This document shows, in pieces, positions 7,728 through 27,281 of a DNA stretch of 64,000 nt. Position 1 is the first letter of the stretch, and every line of letters begins with the position of its first letter. Origin of the DNA: a phage; sequence record PZ168832.1. The stretch is one strand, 5' to 3'. The notes under the pieces were generated by a model. The model saw only the letters and a list, made by a program, of their open reading frames with translations, was not told the origin of the DNA and did not search any database. The position numbers were made by a program, and so were the translations under genes.

Positions 7728-8045
7728 ATGATTTACTTAGGCATCGACCAGGAACAAGACGAGCGTTTAGGAAGCGTGTTAAACGTAGACTTAAACACAG
7801 CTGTACACATCAAGCCTTGGCCAGAGGACCACGGCGACGTAGTTGTACCCGTTGCGCCTTGGACGCGTTACGTGGCCATTGACAATGACGGCCTTGTACA
7901 TTGTTATTCAGAAAAGCCGACCTACTTCGAAAAGTATCACCAATGGCTCATGACTGGTTGGGCATTGGTACGCTGTTGCGGCGAAGTCGGTCTGGATGGC
8001 TGGAGCTTCGAGGCTAGTGAATCGTGTGTCGAGGTGCGATTATGA
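7728..8045 (+). CDS. hypothetical protein
   Basis: Track ORF 7716..8045, start moved to ATG (MIYLGID...). Confidence 0.4.
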   Translation: MIYLGIDQEQDERLGSVLNVDLNTAVHIKPWPEDHGDVVVPVAPWTRYVAIDNDGLVHCYSEKPTYFEKYHQWLMTGWALVRCCGEVGLDGWSFEASESCVEVRL

Positions 8046-8260
8046 ATGCCGCGCTGGGTAAGCTGTCTTTCAACAAGCGCAACGAGTTGCGTATGGTGTC
8101 GCGCTTTCAACAAACGCATTTATCACTAATCAAGATTGCAAACAAGGCCTACTCTCTAAATTGTCCTGAAGAAGAATGGAAAGAATTGAATGAGCGTCGT
8201 AAACAATTACAAAAGGCTGCGTTTAAGCTGCAGCAATATGCCATGGAGTATGCAAAATGA
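8042..8260 (+). CDS. hypothetical small protein
   Basis: Track ORF 8024..8260, start at MNAALGK. Confidence 0.35.
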   Translation: MNAALGKLSFNKRNELRMVSRFQQTHLSLIKIANKAYSLNCPEEEWKELNERRKQLQKAAFKLQQYAMEYAK

Positions 8261-8640
8261 GAATGAAGCGTTGCCCTTACTGCCACGATGTAATGCACCT
8301 TCCACACGAAGAGTTTGTGCAGCACATGACTAACTGTGATAAGAATCCTAAGAGCGAAAGCCAACTTGAAGAAAGAATGTTCTTGGTGTCATTCAAAGCT
8401 TCTGCTTATGAAGTGCAACGTTCTTACGGCGCACCAAGTACGATTTACTGCCCAACAACATTGAGAAGCGACATCGACTCAATTCAGCTTGCGGCCTGGA
8501 TTAACGTTAAGGAAGGAGTCACGCCGCACTTTATTGCGCGCCTCCAATCTCAGATTCTACAAATGAAGCGCGAATACAACCGTGACATAACTGAAGTGAA
8601 GGTGTTGTCTATCACGCCTATGAATAAGGAGTTGCCGTGA
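8257..8640 (+). CDS. hypothetical protein with Cys/His cluster (CPYCHDVMH)
   Basis: ORF track. Confidence 0.4.
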   Translation: MRMKRCPYCHDVMHLPHEEFVQHMTNCDKNPKSESQLEERMFLVSFKASAYEVQRSYGAPSTIYCPTTLRSDIDSIQLAAWINVKEGVTPHFIARLQSQILQMKREYNRDITEVKVLSITPMNKELP

Positions 8641-13339: not shown

Positions 13340-13828
13340 ATGGGATTTTGCACTATGAGTCAAGACTATGTAGCGATGCCTGAAGACTTTGAAGACCCGC
13401 GATTTGCAGAGCACAATCAGGCTTTATTCGATGAGTTCATTGACCTTGTTATTCAGGGCCATGACATGCGCGCAGCTTTTGCACTAGTATTTGGAATGGA
13501 AGTTGCAACGGATAACTACACTGGACAGCGAATCCTTTGCGCGCAACGCAACCCATACTACAAAATGCGCTTCAAAAAGCGTATGGAAGAGATGCCACTC
13601 AAGGATTTGTGGAGCGTAAAAGGTGCAATTCACAATTTGGTTAAGCTTGTGCGTGATCCAGAAGTCGCGGCGTCAGCCAAGCTTAATGCTATTCGCGAAC
13701 TGAATATCATCTACGGCATCACGATGATTGATGAAAACGGCAATAGTAAAATGGGCCGTTCCATGGACGATTTCTACAAGGATTTTGGAGAGGCAGCCAA
13801 AGAAGGCGAGCAATTCTCCCGCCACTAG
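13340..13828 (+). CDS. possible terminase small subunit (alternatively a DNA-binding regulator)
   Basis: 162 aa; FIDLVIQGHDMRAAFALVFG...AQRNPYYKMRF resembles the helix-turn-helix region of small terminase families (from memory); flanked by the 12-mer array. Confidence 0.4.
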   Translation: MGFCTMSQDYVAMPEDFEDPRFAEHNQALFDEFIDLVIQGHDMRAAFALVFGMEVATDNYTGQRILCAQRNPYYKMRFKKRMEEMPLKDLWSVKGAIHNLVKLVRDPEVAASAKLNAIRELNIIYGITMIDENGNSKMGRSMDDFYKDFGEAAKEGEQFSRH

Positions 13829-22277: not shown

Positions 22278-22508
22278 TTAGTGAGAAGACACGACTAATG
22301 TGCCGCTTCCTTTCGCGAAAATCTCAACACCTGGCGGGATTGTGACCGTGCCAACCACTGCGATTCCGATCAACTTGTCATCGGCTTTTTCTTCGAAACA
22401 GATCTCTGCGGCACCGCCGCGAACTTGAATAAGTGCGCCTGATACGTTTTCAGCAACAGAAAGAACGGAAGTGTAAGATGGAGTGAGTTGAATATTTACT
22501 AGGGCCAT
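22278..22508 (-). CDS. hypothetical protein (76 aa)
   Basis: ORF track; hairpin plus T-run (minus sense) immediately upstream of its RBS. Confidence 0.4.
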   Translation of the reverse strand: MALVNIQLTPSYTSVLSVAENVSGALIQVRGGAAEICFEEKADDKLIGIAVVGTVTIPPGVEIFAKGSGTLVVSSH

Positions 22509-22626
22509 GATTTACTCCTGATAAAAAAATGGCCAGAAAGAATCTGGCCGAAAAGATCACCCTTTATCCACTACTAAGCTGGAATCATAATTTTACTTGA
22601 TATAGCTGTCGCAAGCAAACTATAAT

Positions 22627-24087
22627 ATGAATAAAATATTAACACATAATTGGAAAGTCATGTACCAGTTGAATCCTGCTTTAAGAGAAGTCTGGAAGAC
22701 GAAAGCGCGATACAAAGTAATATACGGCGGTCGTGCATCTTCCAAATCGCATGATGCCGCTGGTTTTGCTATTTATTTGGCGGCAAACTTTAAATTAAAA
22801 TTCCTTTGCGTTCGACAATTCCAGAACAAGATTTCTGAATCAGTATATACGCTATTAAAAGACAAAATAGAAATTTCTGATTTCAAAGATGAGTTCAACT
22901 TGTTAAAGAACTCCATTGAACACAAAAGAACAAAATCTGAATTCTTATTTTACGGTATCGCACGCAACGTTGACGAAATCAAATCAACAGAAGGCGTTGA
23001 TGTTCTTTGGCTTGAAGAAGCGCACGCACTTACTGAAGAGCAGTGGGACATCATTGAGCCGACAATTCGTAAGGAAGGGTCCGAAATATGGATCATATTT
23101 AACCCTGATGAAGAGGCTGATTTCGTCTACCAGAACTTTGTTATGCGACCGCCTAAAAATGCCATCGTTAAGAAGATTAACTGGCAGGACAATCCATTCT
23201 TGTCGCAAACAATGCTGGACGTTATCGCTGGCATGTATGAGCGCGACCCGAAAAAGGCAGAACACGTTTATGGCGGAGTACCGAAGACAGGCGGCGACAA
23301 GTCGGTCATCAACCGTGCATTCGTCAAGGCCGCACTAAACCTCCACAAACACCCTACGTTGGGATGGAGCTTGTCAGGGTCTAACCGTATAGGCTTTGAC
23401 GTGGCAGACGACGGCGACGACTTAAACGCCACAGCATTTGTCACGGGCAACGTATTGCGCGGCATAAAGACATGGGAAGGTCTGGAAGATGAATTGCTTA
23501 AGTCCGCAAGCGGAGTTTGGAAAGATGCATTAACATTCGGCGCATCAATTACCTATGACGCCATCGGTGTTGGTGCATTTGCTGGTTCAAAATTTGATGA
23601 GCTTAATGAGTATGCAATCCATGAAAATCCAACATTCCCAAGAATCGAATTTAATGCGTTCAACGCGCAAGGTGCTGTTGATGATCCTGATGACGTCTTC
23701 CTTGAGTTACCACACGTTGAAATACTCAATAAAGACCATTTCGCAAACATAAAAGCGCAAAAATGGACTGAGATTGCCGAACGATTCAGGAAGACATATG
23801 AGTATGCAACAGGGCAGGCCGTATACCCGACTGATGAGCTGATTTCCATCGACACAGACGGCATTCCAGAACTTGGGATTCCTGCTTGGTCTGCGGAAGA
23901 AATTGAGACATTTCTTTTTGAGATGTCAGCGCCGCGCAAAGACACGTCTGTGCTTGGTAAGTTTAAAGTTGAATCGAAAAAGGATATGGCAAAGCGTGGA
24001 GTCAAATCGCCTAACAAAGCGGACGCAGCAATCATGGCGTTGATGAAACCAATTGTTGCAGCATCCGGCTTCTTCTCTAACCTTTAA
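22627..24087 (+). CDS. terminase large subunit
   Basis: 486 aa; Walker A-like YGGRASSKS near N-terminus; ATPase-then-nuclease layout; true start may be the second in-frame ATG (MYQLNPA) because TATAAT abuts the first ATG. Confidence 0.8.
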   Translation: MNKILTHNWKVMYQLNPALREVWKTKARYKVIYGGRASSKSHDAAGFAIYLAANFKLKFLCVRQFQNKISESVYTLLKDKIEISDFKDEFNLLKNSIEHKRTKSEFLFYGIARNVDEIKSTEGVDVLWLEEAHALTEEQWDIIEPTIRKEGSEIWIIFNPDEEADFVYQNFVMRPPKNAIVKKINWQDNPFLSQTMLDVIAGMYERDPKKAEHVYGGVPKTGGDKSVINRAFVKAALNLHKHPTLGWSLSGSNRIGFDVADDGDDLNATAFVTGNVLRGIKTWEGLEDELLKSASGVWKDALTFGASITYDAIGVGAFAGSKFDELNEYAIHENPTFPRIEFNAFNAQGAVDDPDDVFLELPHVEILNKDHFANIKAQKWTEIAERFRKTYEYATGQAVYPTDELISIDTDGIPELGIPAWSAEEIETFLFEMSAPRKDTSVLGKFKVESKKDMAKRGVKSPNKADAAIMALMKPIVAASGFFSNL

Positions 24088-24090
24088 CAA

Positions 24091-24330
24091 TTAAAGCATT
24101 CCGTGCTGAAGGTCGAGTTTTCTTGCGGCAAACGACCTGGCACGGAATCGCTTACCCGCCCTTACTGCCTGTCGAATCTTCTTTTGCAAACACTTACGAT
24201 CAAAATCGTTGCGGTCGACGGCTTCGAGTAAATCACGACGCAAAGCACCCAGTGTCGACTTTTCAGAGACTTCAACGCCCAGCGCCGCTGCAACGTCTTT
24301 CAAAACATCGAGTTCGGTTAAAGTTCTCAT
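24091..24330 (-). CDS. hypothetical small basic protein (79 aa), second gene of a two-gene insert
   Basis: ORF track; ATGA overlap with upstream gene; opposite strand to flanking terL and portal. Confidence 0.4.
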   Translation of the reverse strand: MRTLTELDVLKDVAAALGVEVSEKSTLGALRRDLLEAVDRNDFDRKCLQKKIRQAVRAGKRFRARSFAARKLDLQHGML

Positions 24331-24743
24331 TTGATAATCCCCTTGATGTCTGATTCTGCCATAAAGATTGGAGTTCCGCCGCCAGGAACAATCGAGCGCG
24401 TGACTTTATCAAACATATCGTTTTCTTCAACTTGAATACGATAGAATTTATTTTTGGATGAAGATGGGCACAATCCCATAAATTTGCCGATTCCGCGAAC
24501 GCATTCATCTTCAAAGTATACTGTTTCACCTTGAATGGAGTCGATGTTGTCTACTGGATAGACTTTGCGACCCAACAACCACTCATCCAAAGTAGCTTGC
24601 AAGACGTTTCGCGCATCTAAAATCCACGGGTCAATAATAGCACCTTCATATCGCGCAGCAGTGGCTTTTGCCAGCTCTTCATATTCGCATACGTTTACCA
24701 CTTCGCCTTGATGAAGGACGACAAATACAATTGTTGTGCTCAT
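24327..24743 (-). CDS. hypothetical protein (138 aa), first gene of the two-gene insert
   Basis: ORF track. Confidence 0.4.
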   Translation of the reverse strand: MSTTIVFVVLHQGEVVNVCEYEELAKATAARYEGAIIDPWILDARNVLQATLDEWLLGRKVYPVDNIDSIQGETVYFEDECVRGIGKFMGLCPSSSKNKFYRIQVEENDMFDKVTRSIVPGGGTPIFMAESDIKGIIK

Positions 24744-24872
24744 TTCAATCTCCTTTCGTTTGGTTAACTAAAATATAACTCAAAATGATACAAAAGCAAA
24801 ATATTTTATGAACTATTTATGATTACTATACATATCATTTGCTTACAAACACATGAATATTTATAATATAGA

Positions 24873-27281
24873 TTGATTCCCTTTCACTGTCAGGTGGCGT
24901 TAACAATGAAAATTCTTGGCATAAAACTCTGGGAGAAGACGCAACCAGAAGCCGAACCAGCGGAGATGCCGCCAGGCGACCCATTGGCACCGTTTGAACG
25001 CCTTGAAAGGCGCGGCAGCGGTCAACGCTGGGAAAAGACTGAAAGCAATCGACCGACCTTTAAAACGGTTGATGACTTCCCTTTATATGAGCCTGATATT
25101 AATGGCGATGGTGTTGCAATCATAAAAGGTCGTTCAGTCGATTCCGCAACAGTATCCAAAAAGGTTATGGATAATGCCTTAAAGAACATCAGTTCAGAAG
25201 GGCAAGTCAACCCATACACAGTACCTATTCAACTTCAAAACTGGTATTTGTCACAGTCATTTATCGGCTATCAAGCTTGTGCCATCATCGCACAGCATTG
25301 GCTGGTGAACAAGGCTTGCTCTATGGTAGGCCGTGATGCAGTGCGTAAAGGTTGGGAAGTAAAATCAAGCTCTGAATCAGAATTGTCTGTGCAGGCCAGC
25401 GAACGCTTAAAGCAAATTGATAAAGAATTTAATATCAAAGAGCACTTAGTTGAAGCCGAACGATTCAAAAATATTTTTGGTATCCGCGTCATCATATTTG
25501 ATGTGCGTAGCGATGATCCAGAATACTACAGCAAACCTTTTAACATTGATGGTGTGACAAAGGGGTCTTATAAGGGAATCATTCAGGTTGACCCTTATTG
25601 GATGATGCCATTTTTGACGTCTGAAAACACCGCCGACCCTGCATCACAGCACTTCTATGATCCAGAATACTGGGTGATCAGCGGACAACGTTATCATCGA
25701 AGCCACCTGATCATTTTGCGAAACGATGAGCCAGCTGATATTCTCAAGCCGACTTATATTTACGGCGGCATCCCTCTGACTCAGCAGATTTATGAACGCA
25801 TCTATGCCGCTGAACGTACCGCTAACGAAGCGCCATTGCTGGCGATGTCCAAGCGTACAACCACGCTGCGGACCGACGTTGACAAGGCGATTGCCAATGA
25901 GCGGTCTTTTGCTGAACGTCTGATGATGTGGATTAAGTACCGCGACAACTATGCAGTCAAAGTGCTTGGTCAAAAAGAAGAGATGGACCAGTTCGACATC
26001 AACTTGTCAGACTTCGACAGCATCATCATGAACCAGTACCAGCTGGTGGCCGCAATCGCAAAAGTTCCGTCGACCAAACTTCTTGGGACTTCGCCAAAAG
26101 GCTTTAACGCCACTGGTGAATTTGAGATGGTCAGCTATCACGAAGAGTTGGAAACGTGCCAGCAGCATGACCTGACAAAAATTCTCGACCGCCATTACAA
26201 AATCCTTCTCAAATCAGAAGGGGTGGAAGTCGACGTTAAGGTTGCATGGGAACCAGTTGGCTCACTTACTGCTACTCAACTTGCAGAAATCAACGACAAG
26301 CGAGCTAACACTGGCAAAACTCTCATTGATGCTGGCGTCATTTCTCCTGATGAAGAGCGCGACCGCATCAAAGACGACAAAAACAGCGGCTACAACCGTC
26401 TGCCGGAAGACGCAGCAGAAGAAACCCCAGGGATGTCTCCAGAGAATATGGCATTGCTTGGCAAGTCTGCTGGTGAAGTCCTGCAAGGTAAGGCCGATAT
26501 TGAACAGGCGAAAGTTGATGTCGTTAAGATGGGCGGCCAGTTCTATAGCGAAACAGGTATTATGCCAGAGGGTGCCGCGCGTGGTGAGTTGGCGGAAAAC
26601 CCTGACAAAGCGCCTGTCGAAATCAACATGGACGATACCGATGATGAATCAAGCCATCAGGTTGATGTCCTAACGCAGTTGAAAGAAGGGCTGGAGGGTA
26701 TTGCGGATTACTACCTGAAAGAAGGTCAGGATGTGGATTTTGACCCTCAAAAAGATTCACGGTCGGTGCAACCGTCTACCCTTCCAAGCGTTAAAGGACA
26801 CGTCGTCAACTTACGCCACAACGTGGGTAAAATGGACGCAGCATCATTACCTAAGATGAAGTTGCACGGAATGATTCTTGGCATTGAGAATCCGCGAAAC
26901 AGCATTCGTAGAGGAAACAGCCTTGACGGTGAATGGGCCGTGAAGATGCCGCACCACTACGGATTCATCAAGGGCACCAAGGGCGCAGACGGTGATGAAG
27001 TCGACTGCTTTGTGGGTCCAAATCTGAAGTCGCCGAAAGTCTTTATCGTGAACCAAAACGATAACTACTCTGGCGAGTTTGATGAACACAAGTGTATGCT
27101 TGGATTCGATTCAGCAGAAGAAGCGAAAGAAGCTTATCAAGCATCATTTGGTAACGGTTGGAACGGATTCGACTCAATCCACGAATTAGATGTGAACTCA
27201 TTCAAGGAGTGGTTGAAGGGTGATTGCTCTCAAGCATACGGAGCACTCAATAATCCTACTAATTCACCGAAGCAAGGTTGA
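24873..27281 (+). CDS. portal protein with long C-terminal extension
   Basis: About 800 aa between terL and the Mu-F-like head protein; likely start is ATG at 24906 (MKILGIK), since the track start is a non-ATG codon. Confidence 0.7.
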   Translation: MIPFHCQVALTMKILGIKLWEKTQPEAEPAEMPPGDPLAPFERLERRGSGQRWEKTESNRPTFKTVDDFPLYEPDINGDGVAIIKGRSVDSATVSKKVMDNALKNISSEGQVNPYTVPIQLQNWYLSQSFIGYQACAIIAQHWLVNKACSMVGRDAVRKGWEVKSSSESELSVQASERLKQIDKEFNIKEHLVEAERFKNIFGIRVIIFDVRSDDPEYYSKPFNIDGVTKGSYKGIIQVDPYWMMPFLTSENTADPASQHFYDPEYWVISGQRYHRSHLIILRNDEPADILKPTYIYGGIPLTQQIYERIYAAERTANEAPLLAMSKRTTTLRTDVDKAIANERSFAERLMMWIKYRDNYAVKVLGQKEEMDQFDINLSDFDSIIMNQYQLVAAIAKVPSTKLLGTSPKGFNATGEFEMVSYHEELETCQQHDLTKILDRHYKILLKSEGVEVDVKVAWEPVGSLTATQLAEINDKRANTGKTLIDAGVISPDEERDRIKDDKNSGYNRLPEDAAEETPGMSPENMALLGKSAGEVLQGKADIEQAKVDVVKMGGQFYSETGIMPEGAARGELAENPDKAPVEINMDDTDDESSHQVDVLTQLKEGLEGIADYYLKEGQDVDFDPQKDSRSVQPSTLPSVKGHVVNLRHNVGKMDAASLPKMKLHGMILGIENPRNSIRRGNSLDGEWAVKMPHHYGFIKGTKGADGDEVDCFVGPNLKSPKVFIVNQNDNYSGEFDEHKCMLGFDSAEEAKEAYQASFGNGWNGFDSIHELDVNSFKEWLKGDCSQAYGALNNPTNSPKQG

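Follow-up and report, generated by a model that had tools for sequence, protein, structure and literature searches.

The closest described counterpart of the locus studied here is found in the Pbunavirus phages, in which a leftward block of 12-14 genes (gp04-gp17 in phage 14-1; gp03-gp14 in phage LBL3) occupies the space between terL, on which it converges, and portal, from which it is separated by a divergent promoter region. The block has been named the 'early genome region' and, in 14-1, encodes gp12, which binds the α subunit of RNA polymerase and inhibits transcription (PMC8085984); the YfiN-binding peptide YIP is encoded in the same block (PMC10914365), as is a DUF2786-like protein. In a screen of 38 early ORFans of Pbunavirus, only gp12 and the YIPs were inhibitory, the inclusion of ORF16, the product of the opening gene of the block, not being confirmed (PMC8085984). 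In the literature, we found no paper mentioning 14-1 gp17, LBL3 gp14 or their equivalents, and ORF16 has no published function.

The stretch of DNA analysed in this work, 64 kb at its full length and referred to as the window, belongs to a Wifcevirus, a myovirus of E. coli. The 2.8 kb between positions 22600 and 25400 is 98% identical to phage ECML-117 and shows 91.6-98% identity to 29 Wifcevirus records in all. The locus follows the genetic configuration of the Pbunavirus block: terL, a convergent leftward operon, a divergent promoter region and portal are arranged in the same way, and the gene that opens the operon, A138, is a homolog of the gene for ORF16. The differences are also clear, as Wifcevirus keeps only two genes where Pbunavirus has 12-14, gp12, YIP and the DUF2786-like protein among them; the second Wifcevirus gene, B79, is absent from Pbunavirus; and the terminator predicted at the terL junction of Pbunavirus has no counterpart that we could find at that junction in Wifcevirus. 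In fact, A138 and B79 are already-annotated genes of a known phage genus (PI34_gp33, vBEco4M7_35 and Bas99_0003 for A138; PI34_gp32 and vBEco4M7_34 for B79), labelled "hypothetical protein" in every annotated record, and they represent an uncharacterised conserved family within a known kind of early or accessory operon.

The original prediction, made from the letters of the window, described two small minus-strand genes of 138 and 79 codons coupled by an ATGA and facing the flanking packaging genes. This description was borne out: the coordinates and the overlap are as claimed, both genes have a Shine-Dalgarno site (AAGGAG, 6 nt before the ATG of A138, and AAGGGGA, 7 nt before that of B79), and the location of terL and portal on the plus strand was confirmed by their Pfam matches (Table 1). 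It also stands that this small opposite-strand operon has a candidate σ70-like promoter of its own in an AT-rich region. The stop codons of B79 and terL lie 3 bp apart, no terminator-like hairpin was found after B79 or at the terL junction, and an Rfam scan of the whole window gave no matches.

Table 1. Coordinates of the leftward gene pair, its neighbours and the elements of the intervening control region, as positions in the window.
Feature	Position	Strand	Description
TerS homolog	13340-13828	plus	PDB 7UXE "Small terminase", E=6e-34
terL	22660-24087	plus	Pfam Terminase_3, E=3e-37; convergent with B79
B79	24091-24330	minus	79 aa; basic, pI 10.3
A138 stop / B79 start overlap	24327-24330	minus	ATGA (TGA of A138 overlapping ATG of B79)
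A138	24327-24743	minus	138 aa; first gene of the leftward operon; acidic, pI 4.7
Divergent control region	24744-24905		162 bp, AT-rich, between A138 and portal
Candidate leftward σ70-type promoter	24772-24799	minus	-35 TTGCTT (24799-24794), 16-nt spacer, -10 TATATT (24777-24772); consensus match and phylogenetic footprint
Direct repeat	24805-24822		TTTATGA-N4-TTTATGA, between the two -35 elements
Candidate rightward promoter of the portal/head operon	24839-24867	plus	TTGCTT-N17-TATAAT
portal	24906-27281	plus	Phage_portal_3, E=5e-88, and C-terminal InPase domain; divergent from A138

Distribution and gene order of the pair

Both genes are present in each of the 29 Wifcevirus records that hold the locus. 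Beyond the genus, the A family (A138 and its homologs) was found in Pantoea phage Kyle, in the metagenomic contigs L005 (SRR26188688, 72.5 kb) and L006 (ERZ15609814), and in about 298 Pbunavirus records, to be compared with 297 records that have a Pbunavirus-type TerL. The remote homologs of A138 include KYLE_28 of Kyle, LBL3 gp14 and 14-1 gp17 (ORF16), the last two aligning over the full length at about 26% identity (phmmer E=2e-8 and BLASTP E=2e-9, both in a small database). A tblastn search of the whole phage collection with A138 reached the Pbunavirus homolog at E=2e-3, and in searches with A-family profiles the Pbunavirus members scored E=1e-32 to 8e-38. A word-indexed protein search returned few homologs, and an exhaustive HMMER search with a 9-sequence A profile, run against 1.8 billion proteins, recovered no more than 18 cluster representatives; the A family is therefore narrow and phage-specific. 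For B79, homologs were identified in L005 (a 79-aa protein, 66% identity) and in Kyle (KYLE_26, 35% identity), and none in Pbunavirus.

The position of the A family is the same wherever the order of genes was compared: in LBL3, 14-1, Kyle, L005 and L006 the first gene divergent from portal is an A-family member. What follows it varies, the gap between TerL and portal holding two genes in Wifcevirus, four in L005, five in Kyle, four in Xanthomonas phage Carpasina and 12-14 in Pbunavirus. Kyle, L005 and L006 resemble Wifcevirus in having homologs of A138 and B79 in the same order and downstream of the same type of promoter; they differ in having a trypsin-like protease gene with a lipoprotein signal between A and B, and DUF2786/DUF7168 and other genes after B. 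In L005, a sister lineage and the closer of the two metagenomic relatives (A homolog 53%, B homolog 66% and terL 79% identical, the last at the DNA level), the order is A, a Trypsin_2 lipoprotein, B and DUF2786/DUF7168, followed by the convergent terL. The A, protease, B order is repeated in L006, and Kyle carries KYLE_28 (A), KYLE_27 (trypsin-like protease with a lipoprotein signal peptide), KYLE_26 (B), KYLE_25 and KYLE_24 (DUF2786-like). Carpasina shares the layout of terL, leftward genes and portal, one of its four genes being DUF2786-like, and no homolog of A or B was found in it.

The junctions between these genes speak to the history of the operon. In L005 the A homolog meets the protease gene in an AAATGA identical to that at the A138-B79 junction of the window. 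The start of the L005 B gene also lies in an AAATG, which thus occurs at both edges of the protease gene. The gene order of L005 together with this junction indicates that Wifcevirus lost genes here rather than gained them. The simplest history would be a clean deletion of the protease gene between the two start contexts in the Wifcevirus lineage, with loss of the DUF2786 gene as well, so that A and B came to be joined in an operon of two genes; a search for homologs of either gene relocated within the 64-kb window found none. These comparisons give good support to the view that A138 and B79 are what is left, after reduction, of an old leftward operon common to relatives among the Pseudomonas and Pantoea phages.

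The original prediction had taken the pair for an insertion at a typical moron position, with a toxin-antitoxin system among the candidate functions. The part about position is sound in a limited sense: the gap between TerL and portal does behave as a plastic accessory region over long evolutionary distances, to judge from the gene counts of the genera, but within Wifcevirus the pair is fixed and is not an insertion. Were the pair a moron of recent origin, housing a toxin-antitoxin system or a similar autonomous module of two components, this would account for two compact genes on the opposite strand, coupled by ATGA and provided with a promoter region of their own, and for the pairing of an acidic with a basic protein. 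However, the genes are present in 29 of 29 Wifcevirus records and not just in some close relatives, and the A family is an ancient one whose synteny extends over three or more genera. The base composition is like that of the genome (42.7% GC in A138 and 49.6% in B79; 46.2% in the window, 44.3% in TerL and 47.3% in portal); a promoter-like site is present and conserved, but no terminator follows the pair; and the phage that carries it is strictly virulent. The two-component idea is further contradicted by the Pbunavirus records that have A without B, by the protease gene that separates A from B in L005, Kyle and L006, and by scans of both proteins with Pfam, NCBIfam and PADLOC, in which no significant match to any family, toxin-antitoxin and defence families included, was obtained. 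The distribution largely refutes this reading, which we consider extremely improbable.

Selection and predicted products

Seven Wifcevirus genomes were compared for signs of selection on the two genes. Pairwise dN/dS was 0.06-0.13 for A138, in which synonymous divergence reached up to 1.3, and 0-0.07 for B79; third codon positions were variable in 54% and 29% of cases, respectively, and second positions in 7% and 1%. As dN/dS is low and the variation is concentrated at codon position 3, A138 and B79 are more than chance ORFs, and the substitution pattern indicates that both are real coding genes under purifying selection. A138 diverges faster than its neighbours, with a dS of 1.29 vs 0.33-0.58; in GCA_018093385, amino-acid identity is 85% for A138 vs 96% for B79, and TerL differs at only 8 non-synonymous sites.

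This faster divergence would suit a pair of conserved proteins directed against host immunity, for instance against restriction or abortive infection, a proposal that concerns function only and implies no recent acquisition. Small non-structural proteins encoded in a block that bears host-interaction genes in Pbunavirus would be reasonable candidates for such a role, and the BASEL paper describes a considerable resistance of Wifcevirus phages to restriction in K-12 (PMC11990801). However, no similarity to a known anti-defence family was found, the dN/dS values are low and not raised as in an arms race, and the near-universal presence of the family across Pseudomonas, Pantoea and Escherichia hosts favours a core phage function over a host-specific counter-defence, so we regard an anti-defence role as unlikely.

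The proteins themselves gave few leads in family searches, the PHROG matches of both being weak and solely to families of 'unknown function'. The structural model of A138 consists of an N-terminal β-β-α-β module (residues 4-42) and a C-terminal β-barrel of the SH3/Tudor/Sm-like type (residues 59-137). The likeness of this barrel to known small SH3-like barrels (Sm/LSm, Tudor, KOW, PsaE and Rof/YaeO) is one of generic fold, at 5-17% identity and with no specific family standing out, and the N-terminal module could be assigned no relative. A weak match of the C-terminus to CarD_TRCF_RID (PF02559) was obtained at E=0.062 and was rejected as chance since only 1 of 21 family members matched, no match at or above the gathering score being reproducible across the family. 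B79 was modelled, from a shallow alignment of three sequences, as four helices whose N-terminal half is acidic and SAP/HeH-like and whose C-terminal half is rich in Arg and Lys (pI 11.9); in this model the protein resembles a helical domain of the SAP/HeH type that ends in a very basic tail. The Pfam SAP, Rho_N and HeH profiles gave no match at E<=10 against five members of the B79 family. A Foldseek search of BFVD recovered the family itself and nothing else. In sequence searches of the PDB, which includes the cryo-EM virion structures of Pbunavirus E217, B79 had no match and the A-family profile only chance matches (E>0.3). B79 was also considered as a small terminase and rejected, given this lack of a PDB match and the TerS homolog located elsewhere in the window (Table 1).

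The pair is conserved throughout its relatives, in all the Wifcevirus records and, for A, in Kyle, L005, L006 and Pbunavirus as well, and neither gene matches a structural accessory family. In preparations of vB_Eco4M-7 and ECML-117, published mass spectrometry identified 33 and 28 proteins, among them the 7.7-kDa neighbour (_32/gp30) and portal (_36/gp34), and the lists of virion proteins do not contain _34/_35 or gp32/gp33, which by locus tag are B79 and A138 (PMC7048862). A138 and B79 are therefore not detected virion components, and mass spectrometry may miss proteins that are small or of low abundance.

Proteins that stay out of the virion may still help to build it, and the pair could encode helpers of morphogenesis or packaging, such as an assembly chaperone for the portal or procapsid or a DNA-binding packaging cofactor, A being kept beside portal and terL for its function. 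A does adjoin portal in every lineage that has it, the pair sits between the two packaging genes, and the modelled B79 resembles a DNA binder. But both genes lie on the strand opposite to the head operon, and in Pbunavirus the A gene is co-operonic with experimentally characterised host-takeover genes. The small terminase is already accounted for by the TerS homolog, and Carpasina has the same TerL/portal layout with no A or B homolog found, so neither A nor B is required for this type of portal and terminase. As the adjacency of A and portal is equally well explained by the divergent promoter region that they share, the helper role is one that we hold to be unlikely.

The divergent control region

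The region between A138 and portal had been described in the original prediction as an AT-rich promoter region extending from 24744 to 24872. Its AT-richness is evident, with a GC content of 21.7% in that interval vs 46.2% in the window, but the right edge had to be moved: the curated records start portal at the ATG at 24906 and not at the TTG at 24873, so the intergenic region reaches 24905, with 26.5% GC over its whole length. Among the seven Wifcevirus genomes, only 5 of the 162 columns (3%) vary, whereas the third codon positions of the four flanking genes vary at 29-54%; judged by this alignment, no other part of the locus is as constrained as the 162-bp control region.

Two candidate promoters can be recognised within it. 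The hexamers and spacing of the leftward one are kept in L005, in Kyle (with a 17-nt spacer) and in L006 (as TTGACT/TATACT), and the sequence of the spacer varies among them; because hexamers and spacing are maintained while the spacer sequence changes, the pattern is that expected of a real promoter. The motif of the putative rightward promoter, TTGCTT-N17-TATAAT, occurs seven times in the window within one mismatch, vs 0.6 occurrences expected.

Between the two -35 elements lies a direct repeat whose counterpart in L005 reads TTTTTGA-N4-TTTTTGA, both copies being altered alike. This repeat and its surroundings are the basis for supposing that B79, with or without A138, regulates the divergent control region of the phage itself, autoregulating the leftward promoter and timing the start of the portal/head operon. 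Such a regulator would explain why variability in the region is about 10-fold below that of synonymous sites and why a repeat with the spacing of a helical turn changes in concert between the -35 boxes, and the basic B79 with its modelled SAP/HeH-like fold might provide the DNA-binding activity. However, the repeat is found only once in the window, where 0.8 occurrences are expected by chance at <=2 mismatches, and by itself it is statistically not compelling; its geometry is not kept in Kyle or L006. DNA binding by SAP/HeH domains is usually of low sequence specificity, and a comparable divergent region exists in Pbunavirus, yet no B homolog does. We thus view regulation of the control region by B79 as quite improbable.

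Proposed role of the operon

The reading that we prefer, with a probability of roughly 60%, is that A138 and B79 form a reduced ancestral leftward operon, which throughout the Pbunavirus-Kylevirus-Wifcevirus group is located between portal and the convergent terL and which has a compact and highly constrained divergent promoter region of σ70 type in common with the portal/head operon, and that their bicistronic mRNA encodes non-structural products expected to have an early host-takeover or regulatory role. As to timing, binding partners and biochemical activity, we infer the following course. The host RNA polymerase would start at the leftward promoter (TTGCTT-16-TATATT) and produce an A138-B79 mRNA, the translation of the two genes being coupled through the AUGA. 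As no terminator was found between B79 and terL, the leftward transcripts probably run antisense into terL, on the far side of which a hairpin lies at 22549-22531. The product of A138 would be non-structural and, according to its model, would most likely bind a protein or nucleic-acid partner through the SH3-like barrel; that of B79, also non-structural, would most likely bind DNA or RNA, and its targets could be host DNA, phage DNA or its own control region. Early expression and a role in host takeover or regulation are expected by analogy with the Pbunavirus block.

That both products are non-structural and probably early is suggested by the early region of Pbunavirus, the σ70-type promoter and the non-virion status taken together, and each of these has its bounds. 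The type of promoter is no proof of early expression, because σ70-like promoters also precede structural genes here, portal included. Nor can an early module be recognised by strand alone: a tail fibre and a 76-aa protein detected in virions are also encoded on the minus strand, to the left of terL. The extrapolation from Pbunavirus covers A138 only, since those phages have no B homolog.

A more ambitious form of the proposal would make the A138/ORF16 family a first-early effector throughout the clade (Pbunavirus, Kylevirus and Wifcevirus), in Pseudomonas, Pantoea and Escherichia hosts alike, its barrel binding a conserved piece of host machinery, for example RNA polymerase, Rho or a factor that chaperones or degrades RNA. 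Its partner in the enterobacterial branch would be B79, a SAP-like DNA binder whose target is either the host nucleoid or the divergent control region of the phage. We consider this form doubtful. If it were true, it would define a new family of proteins for host takeover in phages that see wide therapeutic use, and it might bear on the very fast infection cycle of Wifcevirus.

For annotation, the pair should be corrected to a conserved reduced remnant of a Pbunavirus-type leftward operon and not be treated as a mobile moron or a toxin-antitoxin cassette. The comparison of L005 with Wifcevirus offers a clean case in which a gene was lost precisely between start sites that are coupled in translation, and the switch between early and late expression in Wifcevirus could well be dissected in the 162-bp control region. 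Functional studies could reasonably be aimed at the A138/ORF16 family, a core and uncharacterised non-virion protein of a phage group with an important place in Pseudomonas phage therapy.

Promoters and the divergent control region

The control region at 24744-24905, lying between the minus-strand A138-B79 operon (genes for products of 138 and 79 aa) and the portal gene, was variable at 5 of its 162 columns across seven Wifcevirus genomes, compared with 29-54% of flanking third codon positions. It contains a direct repeat, both copies of which are replaced by TTTTTGA in the sister lineage L005; the repeat may be an operator or a pair of UP elements. A search of the window for TTGCTT-N17-TATAAT, allowing at most one mismatch, revealed seven sites against 0.6 expected from shuffling, several of them preceded by AAAATAT, as is the candidate leftward promoter of the operon. 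Judging from these motifs, TTGCTT-N17-TATAAT is probably the main class of host-RNAP promoter in the phage.

Features in the window and in relatives
Feature	Position	Strand	Remark
TTGCTT-N17-TATAAT	802, 5649, 10501, 22618(-), 24839, 28709, 43071		at most one mismatch
TerS, 162-aa ORF	13340-13828	+	PDB 7UXE 'Small terminase', 10 chains, E=6e-34
76-aa gene	22278-22508	-	just upstream of terL
Terminator-like hairpin	22531-22549	-	just past terL 5' end
Promoter-like site	22590-22618	-	
TTTATGA-N4-TTTATGA	24805-24822		inside control region
Portal C-terminal InPase domain	residues ~660-782 of 24906-27281 product	+	inorganic pyrophosphatase-like, PF18823, E=3e-46
Trypsin-like serine protease	L005 6411-7019; Kyle (L003) 7775-8320; L006 1857-2417		lipoprotein signal peptide, LAGC lipobox

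The operon in relatives

In the metagenomic relatives L005 and L006 and in Pantoea phage Kyle, the homologs of A138 and B79 sandwich a translationally coupled gene for a trypsin-like lipoprotein protease, which Wifcevirus lacks; a predicted periplasmic or outer-membrane protease is unusual for such an operon. A complete Wifcevirus-like genome of 68.6 kb was found within an E. coli-labelled assembly (GCA_018093385.1, contig ABADYA010000024.1), and the A138 allele there stands out by its divergence (85% amino-acid identity, dS 1.29), whereas B79 (96%, dS 0.33) and terL (dS 0.58) of this genome do not, which suggests from these comparisons that its A gene is mosaic or fast-evolving. Another A138 copy (P0008, a Logan contig, 156 aa) is frameshifted, and the alternative-frame ORF 24272-24529(-) matches it at the C-terminus; this copy, from one metagenomic contig, probably either reflects an assembly error or is a pseudogene.

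Packaging genes and minus-strand features around terL

The InPase domain of the portal protein is likewise present in the portals of L005 and GCA_018093385, and very large virion proteins of polyvalent or DarB-like PHROG families carry it as well. The match to PDB 7UXE places TerS ~9 kb from terL and thus non-adjacent to it. The terminator-like hairpin, the sole one within 22400-25100 and also annotated as a putative terminator in the WFC record, has the promoter-like site on one side and, on the other, the position (22508) where the next minus-strand gene starts. It could terminate transcripts of the A138-B79 operon that run antisense through terL, or it could serve as an attenuator. The 76-aa gene, whose L005 homolog keeps its position at 44% identity, corresponds to vBEco4M7_32 / PI34_gp30, detected with a high score by mass spectrometry in phage preparations (PMC7048862); therefore, the minus-strand genes adjoining terL are not all non-structural.
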